This document shows positions 1 to 14,825 of a stretch of 64,000 nt of DNA, piece by piece. The stretch is from a virus. A program made the position numbers and the translations under genes. The notes beneath the pieces are model-generated. The model did not search any database, was not told the DNA's origin, and saw only the letters and a program-made list of their open reading frames with translations. Numbering within the stretch: the first letter of the stretch is position 1; each line of letters starts with the position of its first letter. The stretch is taken from positions 1 to 64,000 of the IMG/VR virus record IMGVR_UViG_3300028045_000007, one strand, 5' to 3'.

Positions 1-160
1 TATTGTTTTCCTTTATCATGGGATCGATATGATCAATTTCAAGATCATCTTCGCTGCCGCACCAAACGCATGGGCCGTTTTCGTCGAACCATTCTTGACG
101 ACGACGAGCCATCCATTCCCGTTGATAGGCCCTTTGTTTTTCTTTGTCTTTGTATCCCAT
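1..160 (-). CDS. HNH endonuclease (runs off the left window edge)
   Basis: Manual translation from ATG at 160: MGYKDKEKQRAYQREWMARRRQEWFDENGPCVWCGSEDDLEIDHIDP; CxxC plus LEIDHIDP is typical of phage HNH proteins. Not in the ORF track. Confidence 0.85.
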   Translation of the reverse strand, partial: MGYKDKEKQRAYQREWMARRRQEWFDENGPCVWCGSEDDLEIDHIDPMIKENN

Positions 161-168
161 GATTGTAT

Positions 169-237
169 TGGGGTGGAGCAGGGATTTGCACCCTTCCATT
201 CGGGTCACAGCCGAATTACCCACTTTGGGAACTCCAC
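169..237 (-). tRNA. Atypical compact tRNA-His(GTG)-like gene
   Basis: Manual fold: acceptor GTGGAGT/GCTCCAC, discriminator C, encoded CCA, anticodon arm TTCGG-CTGTGAC-CCGAA, 3-nt D loop, 4-bp T stem with loop TGCAAAT. Confidence 0.65.
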
Positions 238-1300
238 AGTCCGTTTGCTGCCCTATCGCAGCGGTGTACGTGGAGGGCGGCTTACGTGTCCCCGCCCTCG
301 TTCAATACTCTCCACGTAGAGATCAAGCTTTTCACCTTGATATGAGCCTACGCTCTGTAATCAGTCACGTAGCTGTAGCCGCCATAAAAATCGCGAAACC
401 GTTAACTTCGCGTGCCGCCCCCCTAGCGGGGGAGTGCTCGGATATTTCTACACTACATTCTCATGACTTCCATACGCGGTGCCATGCCTAGGTCGGCTCT
501 CTGCATATGGCGTACTTCTGCCACGGCTTGCCAGCCGCAGCCCAAGTGATGGGTTGGTTTTTTCTTGATTGTACGTATCGCTTACTTAAACGTTATCTTC
601 AGCGATATGCAATCGTGGTCAGCATCCGTTTACCCATCCAAGCCTGCTTTCCGTGTATTTAGGGGGCTATCACAAGTTCTAACCCTGGTTGCTAGTGACC
701 GCCGATATGTGAAACACAATATACATGGTTAGGCGTCTGTGAACACGGTGATTAGCCGCTTCACTAGCTTCGTCTCTGTCGTTGCCTCTCGACTCCCAAC
801 AGCAGGACATAGTGTGTAGTTCATTCTGTGTTCCTTCTGGTGAAGCGATCAACTTCCCATAGGTCGCACGTAGCACTTTGAAAGCTTAGGACAATCGCCG
901 TACTACCCCTCGCGGGACATCTTCTCTTTTTCAAGATCAGATAGAGACGCTTCTGTCCTACACACGCTCGTTTTACTCATCTCAAAGAGATGGGCTTTCC
1001 TAAGATCACATTTTAAACAATGTTAGTTGCTTTTAGCCGTTACTTCGGTAAACGAATAAATCCGCCTTATTCCAAGCTGAATACCCACGGTGACACGTGG
1101 TCTCTTGCCTAAAACTTAATCGTGTGGTTCAGATGCGTCACCATCCTCGGTCACACTCGCCTGCCCAGTTCTCAACAAAACGGTGGACACCGCTCTATTG
1201 AAGACAAGCTTTTCTCTACCATGCGGCCCGCAGGCGACCGACTAACAGTCCTGGCCCAGCTAAAAGCACAGGATTTAGAATGTCCGGAGAACGCGGACAT
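238..1300 (-). ncRNA. Candidate large (~1.06 kb) structured ncRNA
   Basis: No credible ORF in an otherwise gene-dense genome, many hairpins, downstream of a promoter and between two CCA-ending tRNA-like elements. Confidence 0.55.
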
Positions 1301-1304
1301 ATGC

Positions 1305-1374
1305 TGGTGCGTCGGGCAGGTACTACCCCTGCTCCATTCCCTTACGGGATATGCCTTACTTACACTACCGACGC
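1305..1374 (-). ncRNA. tRNA-like RNA lacking an anticodon loop
   Basis: GCGTCGG-TA-GTGT-AAGTAAG-GCAT-A-TCCC-GTAA-GGGA-ATGGA-GCAGG-GGTAGTA-CCTGC-CCGACGC-A-CCA: cloverleaf with perfect 7-bp acceptor, 5-bp T stem and CCA, but a GNRA tetraloop in the anticodon position. Confidence 0.7.
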
Positions 1375-1505
1375 ATGTTCCTTAGCGGCAGACGCTATGC
1401 GTCTCTGCCGCTATGATTGGTTCCGAGTTGTCAAAGAGAGGCGGCTGTGTTATGCCCTACCGCCTCGTCGGGCTCACCAGCGGCGTTTTCGCCTCCGGTA
1501 TGTAC

Positions 1506-1533
1506 ATTATACACTAGTTTCGGTGTTCGTCAA
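1506..1533 (-). promoter_or_regulatory. Sigma70-type promoter for the ncRNA unit
   Basis: TTGACG-N16-TATAAT. Confidence 0.75.
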
Positions 1534-1545
1534 CTTCTTTTCGAG

Positions 1546-1581
1546 AAAAAGTTGGGCTGGAGGCCACACAACCCCCAGCCC
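1546..1581 (-). terminator. Intrinsic terminator after rIIB
   Basis: GGGCTGG...CCAGCCC hairpin followed by AACTTTTT. Confidence 0.65.
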
Positions 1582-1603
1582 AGCGGAAACACACGGAGAA
1601 AGA

Positions 1604-2476
1604 TCAGTCGTCCTGGCACTCACCCTCGCACCAATAGTCACCACAATGCTCGCAGTAGTCTTCCGAGTCGCAGTCGTAGTCATCGTCGTCCTGACCTAGA
1701 ACGCAGGGCATCGATTCTCCGATGGATACCTCGGAGCGATAGACGGGCTCCTCGATCAACTTCTCGCACTCCTCGACCACTTCGTACTTGCAAACACGCA
1801 ATTTGGAGCAAGAGCAGTCGAGCGGCACGCTGACAGCATCAGCGGGATTAACTTTAACGAGAACGACTCGACCGTCACTGCCAGCCCAGTCGGTTGCGTA
1901 GCGGTGGGTGCCAACGTGGAACCCATATGAGCAGCCAACGCTATGGTCATCGTTGACCTTGTTGCGAGGCATTTCATTAATGACTCCCACGCTATTGTCG
2001 AATCTGCCAGTGTGCTTGTCTTTCCATTCGGCGGAGATGCCCTTGTAGGCAATGAAGCATCCATCCTCGGTGACGGGGAAGTTGCCGTGTTCCAGGAATC
2101 TGTAAAGCTCATTGACGGCACGTCCGCTCGGATTTGCCATAAGCTTTTCCAGGAAGAGAGCCAGCGGAGCGTAGTCCTCGCCGTTTCGCATGAACTCGCC
2201 AATGCGGTCTGCGAGCACGTTGTTGATCTGCTCTCCATTCCAGAAGACCTCACCATACGGATTAACAGTAATGCCATTCAGTTCGCGTTCTATCGTAGTG
2301 GCAGGATTGAGCAGATCGTCGAGCCGATCGTAGCCAGACTTGTTGGACAAGATACTTGCAATCGGACCATAGTTCGGATGGGTGAGACCAAGCGAGTGGG
2401 TCTGACCGTTCCAGACCAGATTGATGTTGCCGTCAGCAGTGGTGATGTACGTGGGCTTTTTCTTTTTCCAGAACAT
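1604..2476 (-). CDS. rIIB: rIIB-like protein
   Basis: Motifs ANPS...ELYRFL, TEDGCFIAYK, MPRNKV..D...CSYGFH, VKVNPADAVSVP.D....KLRVCKYEV; adjacent to rIIA. Confidence 0.9.
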   Translation of the reverse strand: MFWKKKKPTYITTADGNINLVWNGQTHSLGLTHPNYGPIASILSNKSGYDRLDDLLNPATTIERELNGITVNPYGEVFWNGEQINNVLADRIGEFMRNGEDYAPLALFLEKLMANPSGRAVNELYRFLEHGNFPVTEDGCFIAYKGISAEWKDKHTGRFDNSVGVINEMPRNKVNDDHSVGCSYGFHVGTHRYATDWAGSDGRVVLVKVNPADAVSVPLDCSCSKLRVCKYEVVEECEKLIEEPVYRSEVSIGESMPCVLGQDDDDYDCDSEDYCEHCGDYWCEGECQDD

Positions 2477-2477
2477 A

Positions 2478-4409
2478 TTAGTTTTTCTCCTTGAGAGTGA
2501 TGTACTCAACAATGTCTGCCACGTTGACGTGACGAATTTGAATCTGCGAAAGTAGAGGATAACGTTCACGAAACAGTTCACAGTAATCAGGAGTGTCTGA
2601 TGGGTCGGGCACAACTAGATCGAACATCGCGAACATTGATTTAATAGTATTGCCGATGCGAGACGCTTTGGACATTGCTACCAAGTCGTCGCACACGGGC
2701 GACATATTCTTGATGGCATGGATGAGCATTGCCGGAAATGTGTAAGAGTCAAAGCTGTGTTGCATGCGACTCAGTTCGTACTTGGTCAGTAACGTTAGAC
2801 GCTTTTCTGCATACTTCTTTGCTTCGGTCTCGAAATCAGCCAGACCCAGTTTGTTACTGAGACGCTTGTAGTGCTTGTCGGCAATGCCGTAAACGGTATC
2901 GTATCCCATGGCTTGAGCAATTGCCAGGATTTCCCAAGCATTACGCTCTCTACCCTTGACCATGACGTTCCAACCAGTACGAGGTATGGCAATTGCTTTA
3001 GTGGTTTCTACCTTGTCTTCATCGACACGAGACCATTGATCCGCCTTGGAGCCACTGTATCCAGTAATGCTCTTAAAGAAGGAACGAGTGCCAGTGAACT
3101 TCTTTCGTTCACTCTGGGGAGCGTCGGGAAGCTCACTTATTCTGATGCTCGGCTCTCCGAACACCTGGGTGAAGCGAACCTCGTCCTCAACGTCGGCGAG
3201 GTACATGATGCCCTCTTGGGAACTCAACCAGTAGCGAAGCCGATTCTTGTAGGCTTGCGTCATCTTGACATCGCAGTGGACGATGACGTAATCAGTATAC
3301 TCGCTCGGCTGGAGCGATTCACGCCAGCGGTCTTGTCCGATGCAGAGCTTATTGCCCTTGAGCTTCATGCACTTGAGTTCGTACTTGCCCGATTCCTTAA
3401 TGGAAATGGATTTTTTTCCGGCGGGCAGGTCCCATACGTTACTGAAGCGTTGACGATTCCTGATCTCGGCCATGACACTAATGTCACCAGTCAGTTGTGC
3501 GTCAATCTTTACCTGAACGTCTTTCGATACCTTGTCCAGATGAGATTGAATATTGGCAATCGTGCGTTCGTTATAGTGAAGCTCCTCGCGGCTCACTGCA
3601 AAGTCACATTCGCCATTGTTAACAAACAAGATCAGGGCTCCACTCTGTCCCAGTTTGATCTTGAAGTGTTCCGTTGCCACAGTGTAGCGGACGTTACCCA
3701 TAACCACATTGATGCGGGAGGGAACACCAGCTTCTTGGCGATTGGAGTAAAGCTTGTAGTGAGCATGTTCGAAAAGAGGCTCGCACTCCTCGAATTCGAC
3801 GTTAGCCCCAGTGATCTTGGGACACATAGGCATAAATCGATACACCTTTTGTGCGGCACGCTGCCACTCGTACTCATCGCCAGCCTTGACTTGAACTGTG
3901 ATTTCAAGACCATTCGGTTCGTCAGTGGCATTGGTATCCATCAGGGCGATACGCGGCTCGCCAGTTTCGTTCCTATATGCGGAGTACGTATAGGAGGTAC
4001 CGTTCCAATAGGACGTTACCATGAACTGGTCCGTAAGAGCGAAGGGCGATTTCGAGCCCAAACCAAGGCGACCGATGAAATCGTCAGAATCACTCCTGGT
4101 GGACTCGAAGTACGTAGTGTAAACGTGCTTCACGTCTTCGGGCGAGAGTCCCGTGCCGTAGTCGCGGACCTTGAAAAAGGAAGCAAAGGAGTTGGGCATG
4201 TGAACATCGAAGGGCTTGTCGGTGGTGCCAGCTTCGACTTGAGCGTCATACGCATTGGTAGACAACTCTCTTACGACCGCAAGGATGGGGTCGGTGTACA
4301 GGCGGCTGGAGAGCACTTCGAAGGCGTGTGCGTTGGCCGCGATGGTGAAGTTGCTTTCGGAGAAGTCTCCCGACCGCTCGATGGTTCTGTCTTTAGTGTG
4401 TAGCTTCAT
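2478..4409 (-). CDS. rIIA: rIIA-like protein (N-terminal GHKL/Hsp90-like ATPase)
   Basis: LYTDPILAVVRELSTNAYDA, VRDYGTGL, GRLGLGSKSPF, SREELHY. Confidence 0.9.
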   Translation of the reverse strand: MKLHTKDRTIERSGDFSESNFTIAANAHAFEVLSSRLYTDPILAVVRELSTNAYDAQVEAGTTDKPFDVHMPNSFASFFKVRDYGTGLSPEDVKHVYTTYFESTRSDSDDFIGRLGLGSKSPFALTDQFMVTSYWNGTSYTYSAYRNETGEPRIALMDTNATDEPNGLEITVQVKAGDEYEWQRAAQKVYRFMPMCPKITGANVEFEECEPLFEHAHYKLYSNRQEAGVPSRINVVMGNVRYTVATEHFKIKLGQSGALILFVNNGECDFAVSREELHYNERTIANIQSHLDKVSKDVQVKIDAQLTGDISVMAEIRNRQRFSNVWDLPAGKKSISIKESGKYELKCMKLKGNKLCIGQDRWRESLQPSEYTDYVIVHCDVKMTQAYKNRLRYWLSSQEGIMYLADVEDEVRFTQVFGEPSIRISELPDAPQSERKKFTGTRSFFKSITGYSGSKADQWSRVDEDKVETTKAIAIPRTGWNVMVKGRERNAWEILAIAQAMGYDTVYGIADKHYKRLSNKLGLADFETEAKKYAEKRLTLLTKYELSRMQHSFDSYTFPAMLIHAIKNMSPVCDDLVAMSKASRIGNTIKSMFAMFDLVVPDPSDTPDYCELFRERYPLLSQIQIRHVNVADIVEYITLKEKN

Positions 4410-4476
4410 GTGTGTTCCCTTGTGTGAGGTGACTACAGTATACTGCGTCAATAGCGTTTGTCAAGTCACTTGCAGA

Positions 4477-5433
4477 TTATTTTGGGCACCTATTGTTGTA
4501 GTCACGACAAACGTCCAAGCACATCTTTTTACAGATAGTGTCCTTTTGGCAATCGTGGTTTTCAAGCCACTCCGCACGCTCTTGACGCATGTTCGGTCCA
4601 ACCTTGCCGATGGGATCGCCCATCTCACGCATATAGATGATGCAAGGGAAATGATACCCCTTTGCTACCGCCATGTCGTCCAGCACCAGCGGACACCGAG
4701 AGTTGTCAGTGTCTTCCATGCCACGAACGTGAGCACCACGCAGCACGTTATTGATACGATACCGCAAGATTGGGTACTTGTCAAGGATACGGTCGCCTAA
4801 ACTTGCCAACTGGGCAAGAGCCAGATTGTACTGGGCCGATGGAATAACCCGAATGTCAGAAACACCCAGTGCATCAGCGAACAGCACCGCGTTGACACAA
4901 TCGTGTACGTTCTCCTCAGTGAAGACCATGCCGACCGTGATGTACGTAATCTTGCTGAGACGACGAATGTTGTCGATTACAGTGTCCCATGCTCCAGGAA
5001 CGCCAGTCATCTTGTCGCCAATCGTGGCACAGCAGCCATCAAGCGAGATCGAGAGATCGTTCACGCCGCACTCGATAAGCTCGACGTACCTCTCGTGTGG
5101 GAACGAGCCATTACTTGAAATCGCAATATGCTCAACGCCGCCCTCTTTGCACATGGCCACCAGCGTGTCCAGTCCTTTGTAAAGCAGAGGCTCGCCGCCA
5201 GAGAAGCGAACGTTGCGTAGACCCTGGGAGATCCACAGACGCACTACCTCTTTTGCCTTTTCAAGTGGGAGAGTCCCTTGCAGATCTTCCCTAAGGCCCC
5301 TACAGTAAGGGCACTTGAAATTACAAGCGTGTGTGAGGATCAGTTCACACCTATGGAGAGGAGAGCTAACACTGGTGTTGGCTGCCCGCTCGTCCGACAG
5401 TGTGTAAAATCCGATGTCTTCTAGTCTTTGCAT
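4477..5433 (-). CDS. Radical SAM protein
   Basis: CNFKCPYC (CxxxCxxC), FSGGEP, SISLDG, Cys-rich C-terminus. Confidence 0.9.
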   Translation of the reverse strand: MQRLEDIGFYTLSDERAANTSVSSPLHRCELILTHACNFKCPYCRGLREDLQGTLPLEKAKEVVRLWISQGLRNVRFSGGEPLLYKGLDTLVAMCKEGGVEHIAISSNGSFPHERYVELIECGVNDLSISLDGCCATIGDKMTGVPGAWDTVIDNIRRLSKITYITVGMVFTEENVHDCVNAVLFADALGVSDIRVIPSAQYNLALAQLASLGDRILDKYPILRYRINNVLRGAHVRGMEDTDNSRCPLVLDDMAVAKGYHFPCIIYMREMGDPIGKVGPNMRQERAEWLENHDCQKDTICKKMCLDVCRDYNNRCPK

Positions 5434-14630: not shown

Positions 14631-14825
14631 GGGGGGATAGCTCAATTGGTTAGAGCGGGTCGCCGCAAGGCGATGTCCTCAAGTCTTAGCCAGACTGTCG
14701 CACGGTTAGCTCCCGTGACGCATAGGAAAGCACCGGGGGGTTGCTCCCCTGAGAGACGAACAGGAATACAATATAACTCGAGGTTATTGTATCGGTTGCA
14801 GGTTCGAACCCTGCTCACCCCACCA
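14631..14825 (+). ncRNA. tRNA-shaped RNA with a ~135-nt structured insert replacing the anticodon arm
   Basis: 5' GGGGGGA-TA-GCTCAATTGGTTAGAGC; 3' GCAGG-TTCGAAC-CCTGC-TCACCCC-A-CCA; promoter TTGACT-N16-TATACT at 14568-14595. Confidence 0.8.

Follow-up and report, generated by a model that had tools for sequence, protein, structure and literature searches.

A conserved tRNA-shaped element without an anticodon loop at the head of a phage RNA operon

mascRNA and the tRNA-like RNAs of MHV-68 are tRNA-like processing signals, and the stable RNAs C and D (species 1 and 2) of the T4 tRNA gene cluster are small non-tRNA RNAs that are co-transcribed with phage tRNAs and owe their maturation to tRNA-processing enzymes. 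The usual view of phage tRNA genes is that they are decoders that serve codon supply or anti-defence, whereas in the phage described here a tRNA body is maintained that cannot decode. In plant mitochondria, t-elements act as signals for RNase P and RNase Z (PMC1920247). The GOLLD and ROOL RNAs are found near tRNA islands, and tRNAs sometimes lie in the linker of GOLLD (bioRxiv 10.1101/2024.12.08.627333; PMC5737381).

The phage is represented by a 154,408-bp record of an uncultured virus, estimated to be 99% complete, and encodes a T4-type large terminase. The window referred to below is the whole 64-kb stretch that was analysed, which is the first part of this record. An initial annotation of the window had pointed to a tRNA mimic in which a GUAA tetraloop takes the place of the anticodon loop; we refer to this element as the mimic. 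Relatives were reached via the terminase and comprised eleven IMG/VR contigs with 59-79% terminase identity; related phages are named below by record (G) or contig (L) numbers.

Fold of the mimic and its detection

The mimic lies on the minus strand at 1374..1305 of the window (70 nt). Read from 5′ to 3′, it consists of an acceptor stem of seven Watson-Crick pairs (GCGUCGG/CCGACGC, 1374-1368/1315-1309), U8-A9, a D arm (1365-1351) with the stem GUGU/GCAU, including two G-U pairs, and the loop AAGUAAG without GG, A26, a capped arm of 4 bp with a GUAA cap (UCCC-GUAA-GGGA, 1349-1338), a variable region AUGGA (1337-1333), a T arm (1332-1316) with the 5-bp stem GCAGG/CCUGC and the loop GGUAGUA, and, after the 3′ strand of the acceptor stem, A73 (1308) with the encoded CCA (1307-1305). 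The nucleotide at position -1 is U (1375, minus). The parts described in the initial annotation (acceptor stem, A73-CCA, T stem, TCCC-GTAA-GGGA, D loop without GG, and GGTAGTA) were correct in every detail. In RNAfold, this four-arm cloverleaf was both the MFE and the centroid structure (-28.6 kcal/mol, z = -3.37), none of 200 shuffles folded as well, and the cloverleaf was kept when the mimic was folded inside a 261-nt context. A strict descriptor (7/7 acceptor pairs, 5/5 T-stem pairs with a 7-nt loop, 4-bp D stem, central hairpin of at least 4 bp, and NCCA) matched only tRNA-Leu(UAG) and the mimic on both strands of the 154-kb genome. The same descriptor gave no match in 10 dinucleotide-preserving whole-genome shuffles, indicating that the cloverleaf did not arise by chance. 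Both the fold and the descriptor thus recovered the arms of the tRNA cloverleaf, namely, a 7-bp acceptor stem, a D arm, an arm at the anticodon position, and a 5-bp T arm.

Programs that find tRNA genes had been predicted to miss the element, and they did so. ARAGORN left the mimic uncalled and found only tRNA-Met in the window with default settings, and the Rfam tRNA model RF00005 (gathering cut-off, 29 bits) had no match on the mimic even at E ≤ 10. With the two further variants described below, RF00005 gave no match for the L032 variant at E ≤ 10 or for the G002 variant at E ≤ 1, and ARAGORN was silent. Genes of this kind escape tRNA finders and therefore remain blank in phage annotations.

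The claim that the element cannot decode also held in all three variants, none of which has a normal anticodon loop, that is, a 7-nt loop with U33 and a purine at position 37 on a 5-bp stem. The elbow deviated from that of a tRNA as well: the loops AAGUAAG and GGUAGUA contain neither G18-G19 nor the T-loop sequence U54-U55-C56-R57-A58. In the genuine tRNAs of this genome, the D loop retains GG and the T loop is UUCRANY; the odd elbow is therefore specific to the mimic. NCCA is encoded by the genuine tRNAs of this phage too, and two of three (Leu-UAG and Met) have U at -1.

Plus-strand ORFs that overlap the mimic (1122-1385 and 1280-1699) and a 42-aa minus-strand ORF were rejected as genes, as they had no PHROG match and were unconserved. 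A reading of the mimic as an attP or integration site was likewise set aside, given its complete cloverleaf and separate promoter. Elsewhere in the window, a second tRNA-shaped RNA was observed on the plus strand at 14631-14825, with canonical D and T loops, CCA, and an insert of ~120 nt at the place of the anticodon arm. The Rfam tRNA model scored 34.7 bits over a 192-nt span of this RNA, and a promoter-like TTGACT...TATACT lies upstream of it.

The RNA operon and its modules

The mimic follows rIIA (2478-4451, minus) and rIIB (1604-2614, minus), both assigned with PHROGs. The rIIB transcript ends at an intrinsic-terminator-like hairpin with a U run (1553..1582, minus; 13-pair stem, tail ACUUUUUCUC). 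Behind it, a predicted sigma-70-type promoter, TTGACG-16-TATAAT (1506..1533, minus; 11/12 matches), heads the RNA operon 125 nt upstream of the mimic, and TTGACA/TATAAT-type promoters are found at the same place in G001, G002, G004, G007, G010, and L032. A conserved leader motif, UCUUUGACAACUCGGAACCA (1418..1437, minus), follows a hairpin in every relative and was recovered with at most 4 mismatches in this phage, G001, G002, G004, G007, G010, and L032/L035; other leader hairpins lie between the promoter and this motif on the minus strand. The promoter and the GACAACUCGG motif recur together in G001, G002, G004, G007, and G010. As an observation in its own right, the motif UCUUUGACAACUCGG (1418-1437, minus), directly after the hairpin, marks the operon head in at least six related phages (L022, L023, L024, L026, L027, and L032). 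Conceivable roles of the leader motif are attenuation, processing, and recognition by a protein. A bulged leader hairpin, GCGGCA-GA-GACGC-AUA-GCGUC-UGCCGC (1385..1411, minus), stands 10 nt upstream of the mimic. The region of this hairpin was 100% identical to that of G002 over ~65 nt, and the motif-plus-hairpin segment was 89% identical to that of L032.

rIIB was present in seven of the eleven relatives, with a tRNA cluster of up to 16 genes downstream on the same strand. In G007, a genuine tRNA-Gly(UCC) stands after the leader motif, and the last two genes of the cluster are Leu(CAA) and Leu(UAG), a feature shared with this phage. The promoter, the leader motif, and the tRNA-Gly of G007 at the same place indicate that the mimic occupies the first-tRNA slot of a tRNA operon. 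The tRNAs of this phage are only tRNA-Met, two tRNA-Leu, and a tRNA-His-like gene; judged from this gene content, the tRNA operon is otherwise largely lost in this phage.

Four nucleotides after the CCA of the mimic, a conserved hairpin, AUGUCCG-CGUUCUC-CGGACAU (1280..1300, minus), forms the first helix of a large downstream ncRNA. This hairpin was 92% identical to that of L032/L035 and is also present in G001, which has no mimic. It is followed by ~1 kb without a credible ORF, in which the conserved core of an ORF-free structured RNA (665..1304, minus), directly 3′ of the mimic, possibly extends to ~240. The segment 1376-665 showed 70% identity to L032 over 728 nt, which was more extensive than in the neighbouring coding DNA, and the identity of the large RNA to L032/L035 was 57-72%. 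RNAalifold analysis of four sequences predicted 64 pairs in the first ~230 nt after the CCA, 26 of them with changes on both sides, and the covarying ncRNA begins 1-4 nt after the CCA. No Rfam family, GOLLD and ROOL included, matched window 1-1640 or L032 12500-13622, either at the gathering threshold or at E ≤ 10. In the large RNA, UACGG-CGAUUGU-CCUAAG (885-902, minus; UAUGG in L035) was noted, which we take to resemble the 11-nt GAAA-tetraloop receptor (UAUGG/CCUAAG). Conservation is 100% on its CCUAAG side and in the flanks, and L032/L035 have a hairpin of the CUC-GAAA-GAG type shortly before it.

The ncRNA ends at a compact tRNA-His(GUG)-like gene (169..236, minus) with the 7-nt loop CUGUGAC, the T loop UGCAAAU, and C73-CCA. 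ARAGORN called this gene only at a low threshold, and it was missed at the default setting and by Rfam. It was 80-81% identical to its counterparts in L032/L035, where the T loop is the canonical UUCGAUU. Its D arm is tiny, its anticodon stem has 6 bp, and position -1 is occupied by U instead of G. An HNH endonuclease gene (1-160, minus) after tRNA-His runs off the contig start.

The order of mimic, large ncRNA, and tRNA-His was shared by this phage and L032/L035. The modules are separable: in G002, ~440 nt and an HNH gene, rather than the big RNA, separate the mimic from tRNA-His, and in G001, which lacks the mimic, the first part of the big RNA comes after another helix-closed module of 230 nt. 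HNH homing-endonuclease genes thus occur within the tRNA/ncRNA region at different positions in this phage (1-160) and in G002 (L024:4841-5299, minus), which is consistent with mosaic shuffling of modules. In addition, L032 (12700-12783, plus) and the equivalent part of L035 carry an extra helix-closed module of ~80 nt between the leader hairpin and the mimic, with a 7-bp closing stem GCUUAAG/CUUGAGC and an internal CUUG-capped hairpin; this module is absent from this phage and G002.

Other RNA-related genes were noted in the record. At the other contig end, tRNA-Leu(CAA), tRNA-Leu(UAG), and genes for a PRPP-synthetase-like protein, SSB, an AAA_33 kinase, a CCA-adding enzyme, and an Rnl1-type RNA ligase run in the same direction. 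Three of these, the Rnl1-type RNA ligase, the CCA-adding enzyme with an HD domain, and the AAA_33 kinase, make up a tRNA/RNA end-repair kit at G000 148000-150667 (L002:1-2668, minus). Near rIIA, the segment 5750-7431 of the window (minus) encodes a cREC cyclic-phosphate receiver domain, a metallophosphoesterase, and a phosphatase, and a radical SAM gene lies at 4477-5433.

Variants in related phages and their conservation

The rIIB homologues in isolated phages were all at most 40% identical, and the phage therefore has no cultured relative; isolated-phage DNA gave no match to window 700-1700. In IMG/VR, an exact-pattern search and a single-protein rIIB search were both without matches. Besides the mimic of this phage, two variants were obtained. 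The G002-type variant, seen in three assemblies, is mismatched at A3.C70, pairs G10 with C25, and carries an 8-nt T loop (AGGUAGUG) as well as ACCA. Its middle arm, CUUCCC-AGCGG-GGGGAG, forms a 6-7-bp stem with a 5-nt loop and could open to CAGCGGG with A33. The L032/L035-type variant, from two metagenome contigs, has G6-U67, the T stem ACAGG/CCUGU, the T loop GGAAGUA, UCCA (U73), and the middle arm CCCC-UCACAU-GGGG with a 4-bp stem and a 6-nt loop. Close relatives with a normal 7-nt anticodon loop, which according to the initial annotation would speak for a recent deletion or an assembly error, were looked for and not found: the loops of the other variants were AGCGG and UCACAU. Furthermore, the same element is present in independent assemblies, and the element itself is therefore no assembly artefact.

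A custom covariance model, the kind of homologue search that had been proposed from the sequence, was built from the three variants (R1) and scored 94.6 bits on the mimic of this phage and 81-82 bits on the two other variants. When nine related phage records were each searched whole with R1, only G002 matched; the other eight, two of them complete, gave nothing. Viral pattern scans returned only G002-type contigs and ordinary tRNA-Lys genes of other phages. The 25 pattern-scan matches in prokaryote genomes, approximately the number expected by chance by our estimate, were rejected, as none scored above 23 bits with R1. Outside the three variants, R1 scored highest on a normal tRNA-Lys(UUU) from large, unrelated phages (29.6 bits) and on the tRNA-Gly(UCC) of G004 (28 bits). 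CUUCCCA in the middle arm of G002 differs little from CUUCCAA, the loop of tRNA-Gly(UCC), and the D stem GUGU is common to the mimic variants and the nearest tRNAs of R1. Since the matches to tRNA-Gly(UCC) and tRNA-Lys(UUU) tie, no particular ancestor was assigned; descent of the mimic from a decoding tRNA is likely. Assignment of the ancestor by global alignment to 63 phage tRNAs was tried and discarded, as no score rose above the tRNA-versus-tRNA background. The tRNA-Gly(UCC) of G004 (L023:2867-2942, minus) is itself unannotated and non-canonical, with the loop CUUCCAA, U73-CCA, a D loop without GG, and a 4-bp T stem with a 9-nt loop, and was missed by ARAGORN and Rfam.

The acceptor, D, and T stems of the mimic were identical at 28-30 of 32 positions (88-94%) to those of the G002-type and L032-type variants. 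Identity between variants was 62-76% in the loops and linkers and 35-44% in the middle arm, which was always a hairpin. In the flanking rIIA, rIIB, and phosphoesterase genes, four-fold degenerate sites were 32-42% identical (proteins, 39-55%), and the stretch of promoter and leader that precedes the conserved motif was 35% identical to that of L032 (63 alignment columns). Because neutral sites are saturated and yet the stems remain nearly identical, decay is disfavoured and purifying selection is indicated, in agreement with the initial annotation, which had argued for selection from the intact stems. L032 and L035 were counted as one sequence because their 5′ modules do not differ, probably owing to a recent recombination; the two were 98-100% identical 5′ of the big RNA and only 75-91% within it, and the high identity of the leader may likewise result in part from recent recombination.

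Across the three variants, 98% of the pair cells were paired, as against 34-55% in slid controls. One compensatory change, from G-C to A-U, was seen in the T stem, and pairing was retained at two one-sided changes. This covariation was not significant alone, with three distinct sequences and a shuffle control that was not exceeded (164/500), and the selection argument rests on conservation compared with saturated neutral sites. The sequence of the acceptor stem was near-invariant, and none of its 7 pairs carried a compensatory change. The odd T loop, GGWAGUA, was conserved across variants as well. Such constraint on the acceptor stem and T loop appears to exceed the needs of RNase P and hints at a sequence-specific partner.

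The middle arm varied in length (12, 16, or 17-19 nt) and in its loop (4, 5-7, and 6 nt), and U33 was found in none of the variants. As both sequence and loop size vary, the GUAA cap is one state of a drifting hairpin rather than a conserved docking loop. Hence the GUAA tetraloop, by which the initial annotation described the element, is present in this phage but is not a feature of the family, in which this arm is the one freely varying part. Taken together, the comparison of the three variants shows that the mimic is kept under clear selection and is incapable of decoding.

Interpretation and relation to known systems

We consider the chance about even that the mimic is a tRNA-derived, non-decoding processing module, which would be cut by RNase P and trimmed to its CCA. 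This reading is favoured because the parts for end processing are kept, the decoding part drifts, and the element lies between a conserved leader and an ncRNA that ends at a tRNA. It builds on the established fold, promoter, conservation pattern, synteny, and downstream structured RNA. All three variants have the features of an RNase P substrate: U at -1, G1-C72, a 12-bp coaxial stack of 7 + 5 bp, and NCCA. A non-canonical cloverleaf in a longer predicted transcript, abutting another RNA, characterizes the class of processing signals, and the mimic has this arrangement. In this reading, an RNA operon directly after rIIB would be driven by a sigma-70-type promoter of its own, and the mimic would be its first structured module. 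Host RNase P would cut between U-1 (1375) and G+1 (1374), by which the conserved leader would be removed. E. coli RNase E is reported to cut 1-3 nt after an encoded CCA (PMC2190699). An endonuclease cut a few nucleotides after the CCA of the mimic, followed by exonuclease trimming, would similarly give a CCA-ended tRNA-shaped RNA of ~70 nt, presumably a stable product, and would also fix the 5′ end of the large ncRNA. The 3′ end of the ncRNA would be set by RNase P at tRNA-His in this phage and L032/L035. The middle arm would need only to be a hairpin so that the cloverleaf folds, and its sequence and loop size would thus be free to drift. A role of the cap in GNRA docking is unlikely, since the capped arm is the freely varying part. 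Several findings stand against the processing module: the elbow nucleotides that RNase P and the CCA-adding enzyme use (G18/G19 and T54-C56) are absent, the mimic and the large ncRNA occur apart in G002-type phages and G001, the sequence constraint on the acceptor stem and T loop goes beyond the needs of RNase P, and the covariation is thin.

The initial annotation had proposed three functions, of which a processing signal fits the anatomy best; a decoy is possible only for readers of the acceptor or CCA end, and an aminoacyl carrier is little supported. Retention of the mimic in G002-type phages without the big ncRNA, together with conservation of the acceptor sequence, the CCA, and the unusual T loop beyond simple pairing, agrees with a tentative alternative, in which the CCA-ended RNA acts in trans as a mimic of the top half of tRNA and binds an acceptor-end-reading protein as a decoy, sponge, or regulator. 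Candidate partners are defence or toxin proteins of the host by which tRNA 3′ ends are modified, cleaved, or sensed, and the tRNA-end enzymes of the phage itself. The same genome holds tRNA end-repair genes (CCA-adding enzyme, Rnl1-type ligase, and AAA_33 kinase, with cREC, metallophosphoesterase, and phosphatase near rIIA) and the second tRNA-shaped RNA with its ~120-nt insert. These repair genes are, however, context rather than a link, and the element, known in three variants only and absent from eight related phage records (two complete), is dispensable in the group. A decoy for anticodon nucleases is unlikely because such nucleases need the missing loop. The narrower proposal of a dedicated acceptor-end decoy, which would occupy a host immune protein or tune the CCA-adding/ligase kit of the phage, seems rather doubtful; lacking an anticodon loop, such a decoy would go unseen by both the ribosome and anticodon nucleases.

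Somewhat more doubtful still is an uncleaved structural domain of the large ncRNA, a module for folding, stability, or assembly like the tRNAs in the GOLLD linker. The downstream domain starts immediately after the CCA, tRNAs covalently linked to GOLLD have been reported, and L032/L035 and G001 have other helix-closed modules at the same position; nevertheless, U-1, G+1, and NCCA are kept as in genuine pre-tRNAs, the mimic persists in G002 without the big RNA, and the capping loop that could dock is unconserved. An aminoacyl carrier for a non-ribosomal reaction, charged, for example with glycine, via the acceptor stem only, is very improbable. The bacterial tRNA-Gly identity set comprises G1-C72, C2-G71, U73, C35, C36, and G10-Y25 (PMC9976931). 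The mimic matches it at G1-C72, C2-G71, G3-C70, and G10-Y25, the L032 variant has U73, the CUUCCCA of G002 is close to the Gly(UCC) loop, and the tRNA-Gly(UCC) of G004 is one of the two nearest tRNAs (28 bits). On the other hand, C35/C36 are absent, A73 stands in this phage and G002 where U73 is the bacterial determinant, no FemAB-type (Fem-type) transferase was found in the genome, and glycine ancestry is not established, since R1 gives an equally good score to a tRNA-Lys(UUU) of unrelated phages (29.6 bits). Least probable, and hardly credible in our view, is a decaying tRNA pseudogene left after loss of most of the tRNA cluster. The few tRNAs of this phage compared with up to 16 in relatives, and the indels in the middle arm, are consistent with loss of decoding, but the stems are almost unchanged over saturated neutral sites, with paired helices and CCA in all three variants, and a very recent transfer of the variants would require equally conserved flanks, which the flanks are not.

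Compared with canonical tRNA (RF00005), the mimic shares the four-arm cloverleaf, the 7-bp acceptor stem, the 5-bp T stem with a 7-nt loop, U8, a 5-nt variable region, NCCA, and U-1, and it sits where relatives start their tRNA cluster; what it lacks is a 7-nt anticodon loop with U33, the G18/G19 pair of elbow nucleotides, and a T loop of the UUCRANY type. The tRNA-like domain of tmRNA is similar in its tRNA top half with CCA and in its lack of an anticodon, whereas the mimic has complete D and middle arms and is without G3-U70, a tag reading frame, and pseudoknots. Indeed, no ARAGORN or Rfam call for tmRNA overlapped the mimic, in which the third pair is G3-C70 here and an A3.C70 mismatch in G002. 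The stable RNAs C and D of T4 offer a parallel as small RNAs other than tRNAs that are made from a phage tRNA cluster. The GOLLD and ROOL RNAs resemble the large ncRNA as phage-borne, ORF-free, highly structured RNAs of 0.6-1.1 kb among tRNA genes, with a tRNA-shaped unit joined in the predicted primary transcript; the differences are that their Rfam models were unmatched here and in L032 at E ≤ 10 and that the attached unit is a non-decoding mimic. Plant mitochondrial t-elements are likewise non-canonical cloverleafs in longer transcripts with a neighbouring RNA at their edge, and the logic proposed for the mimic, with ends made by tRNA-processing enzymes, is the same. Unlike t-elements and mascRNA, the present element belongs to a phage in a bacterium, encodes its CCA, and adjoins a large ncRNA rather than an mRNA; RF01684 had no match on the mimic in the Rfam scans, and no sequence relation to t-element or mascRNA-type signals was found.

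If the mimic is a decoy, it would represent RNA-based counter-defence of a kind not yet described. If it is a processing module, tRNA punctuation, as seen in organelles and in a few eukaryotic and herpesviral RNAs, would also mature ornate phage ncRNAs, which would provide a handle on how GOLLD/ROOL-like RNAs gain defined ends. In our analysis, the mimic fails the defining tests of tRNA, tmRNA, and mascRNA and would work most like t-elements, mascRNA, and tRNA punctuation.
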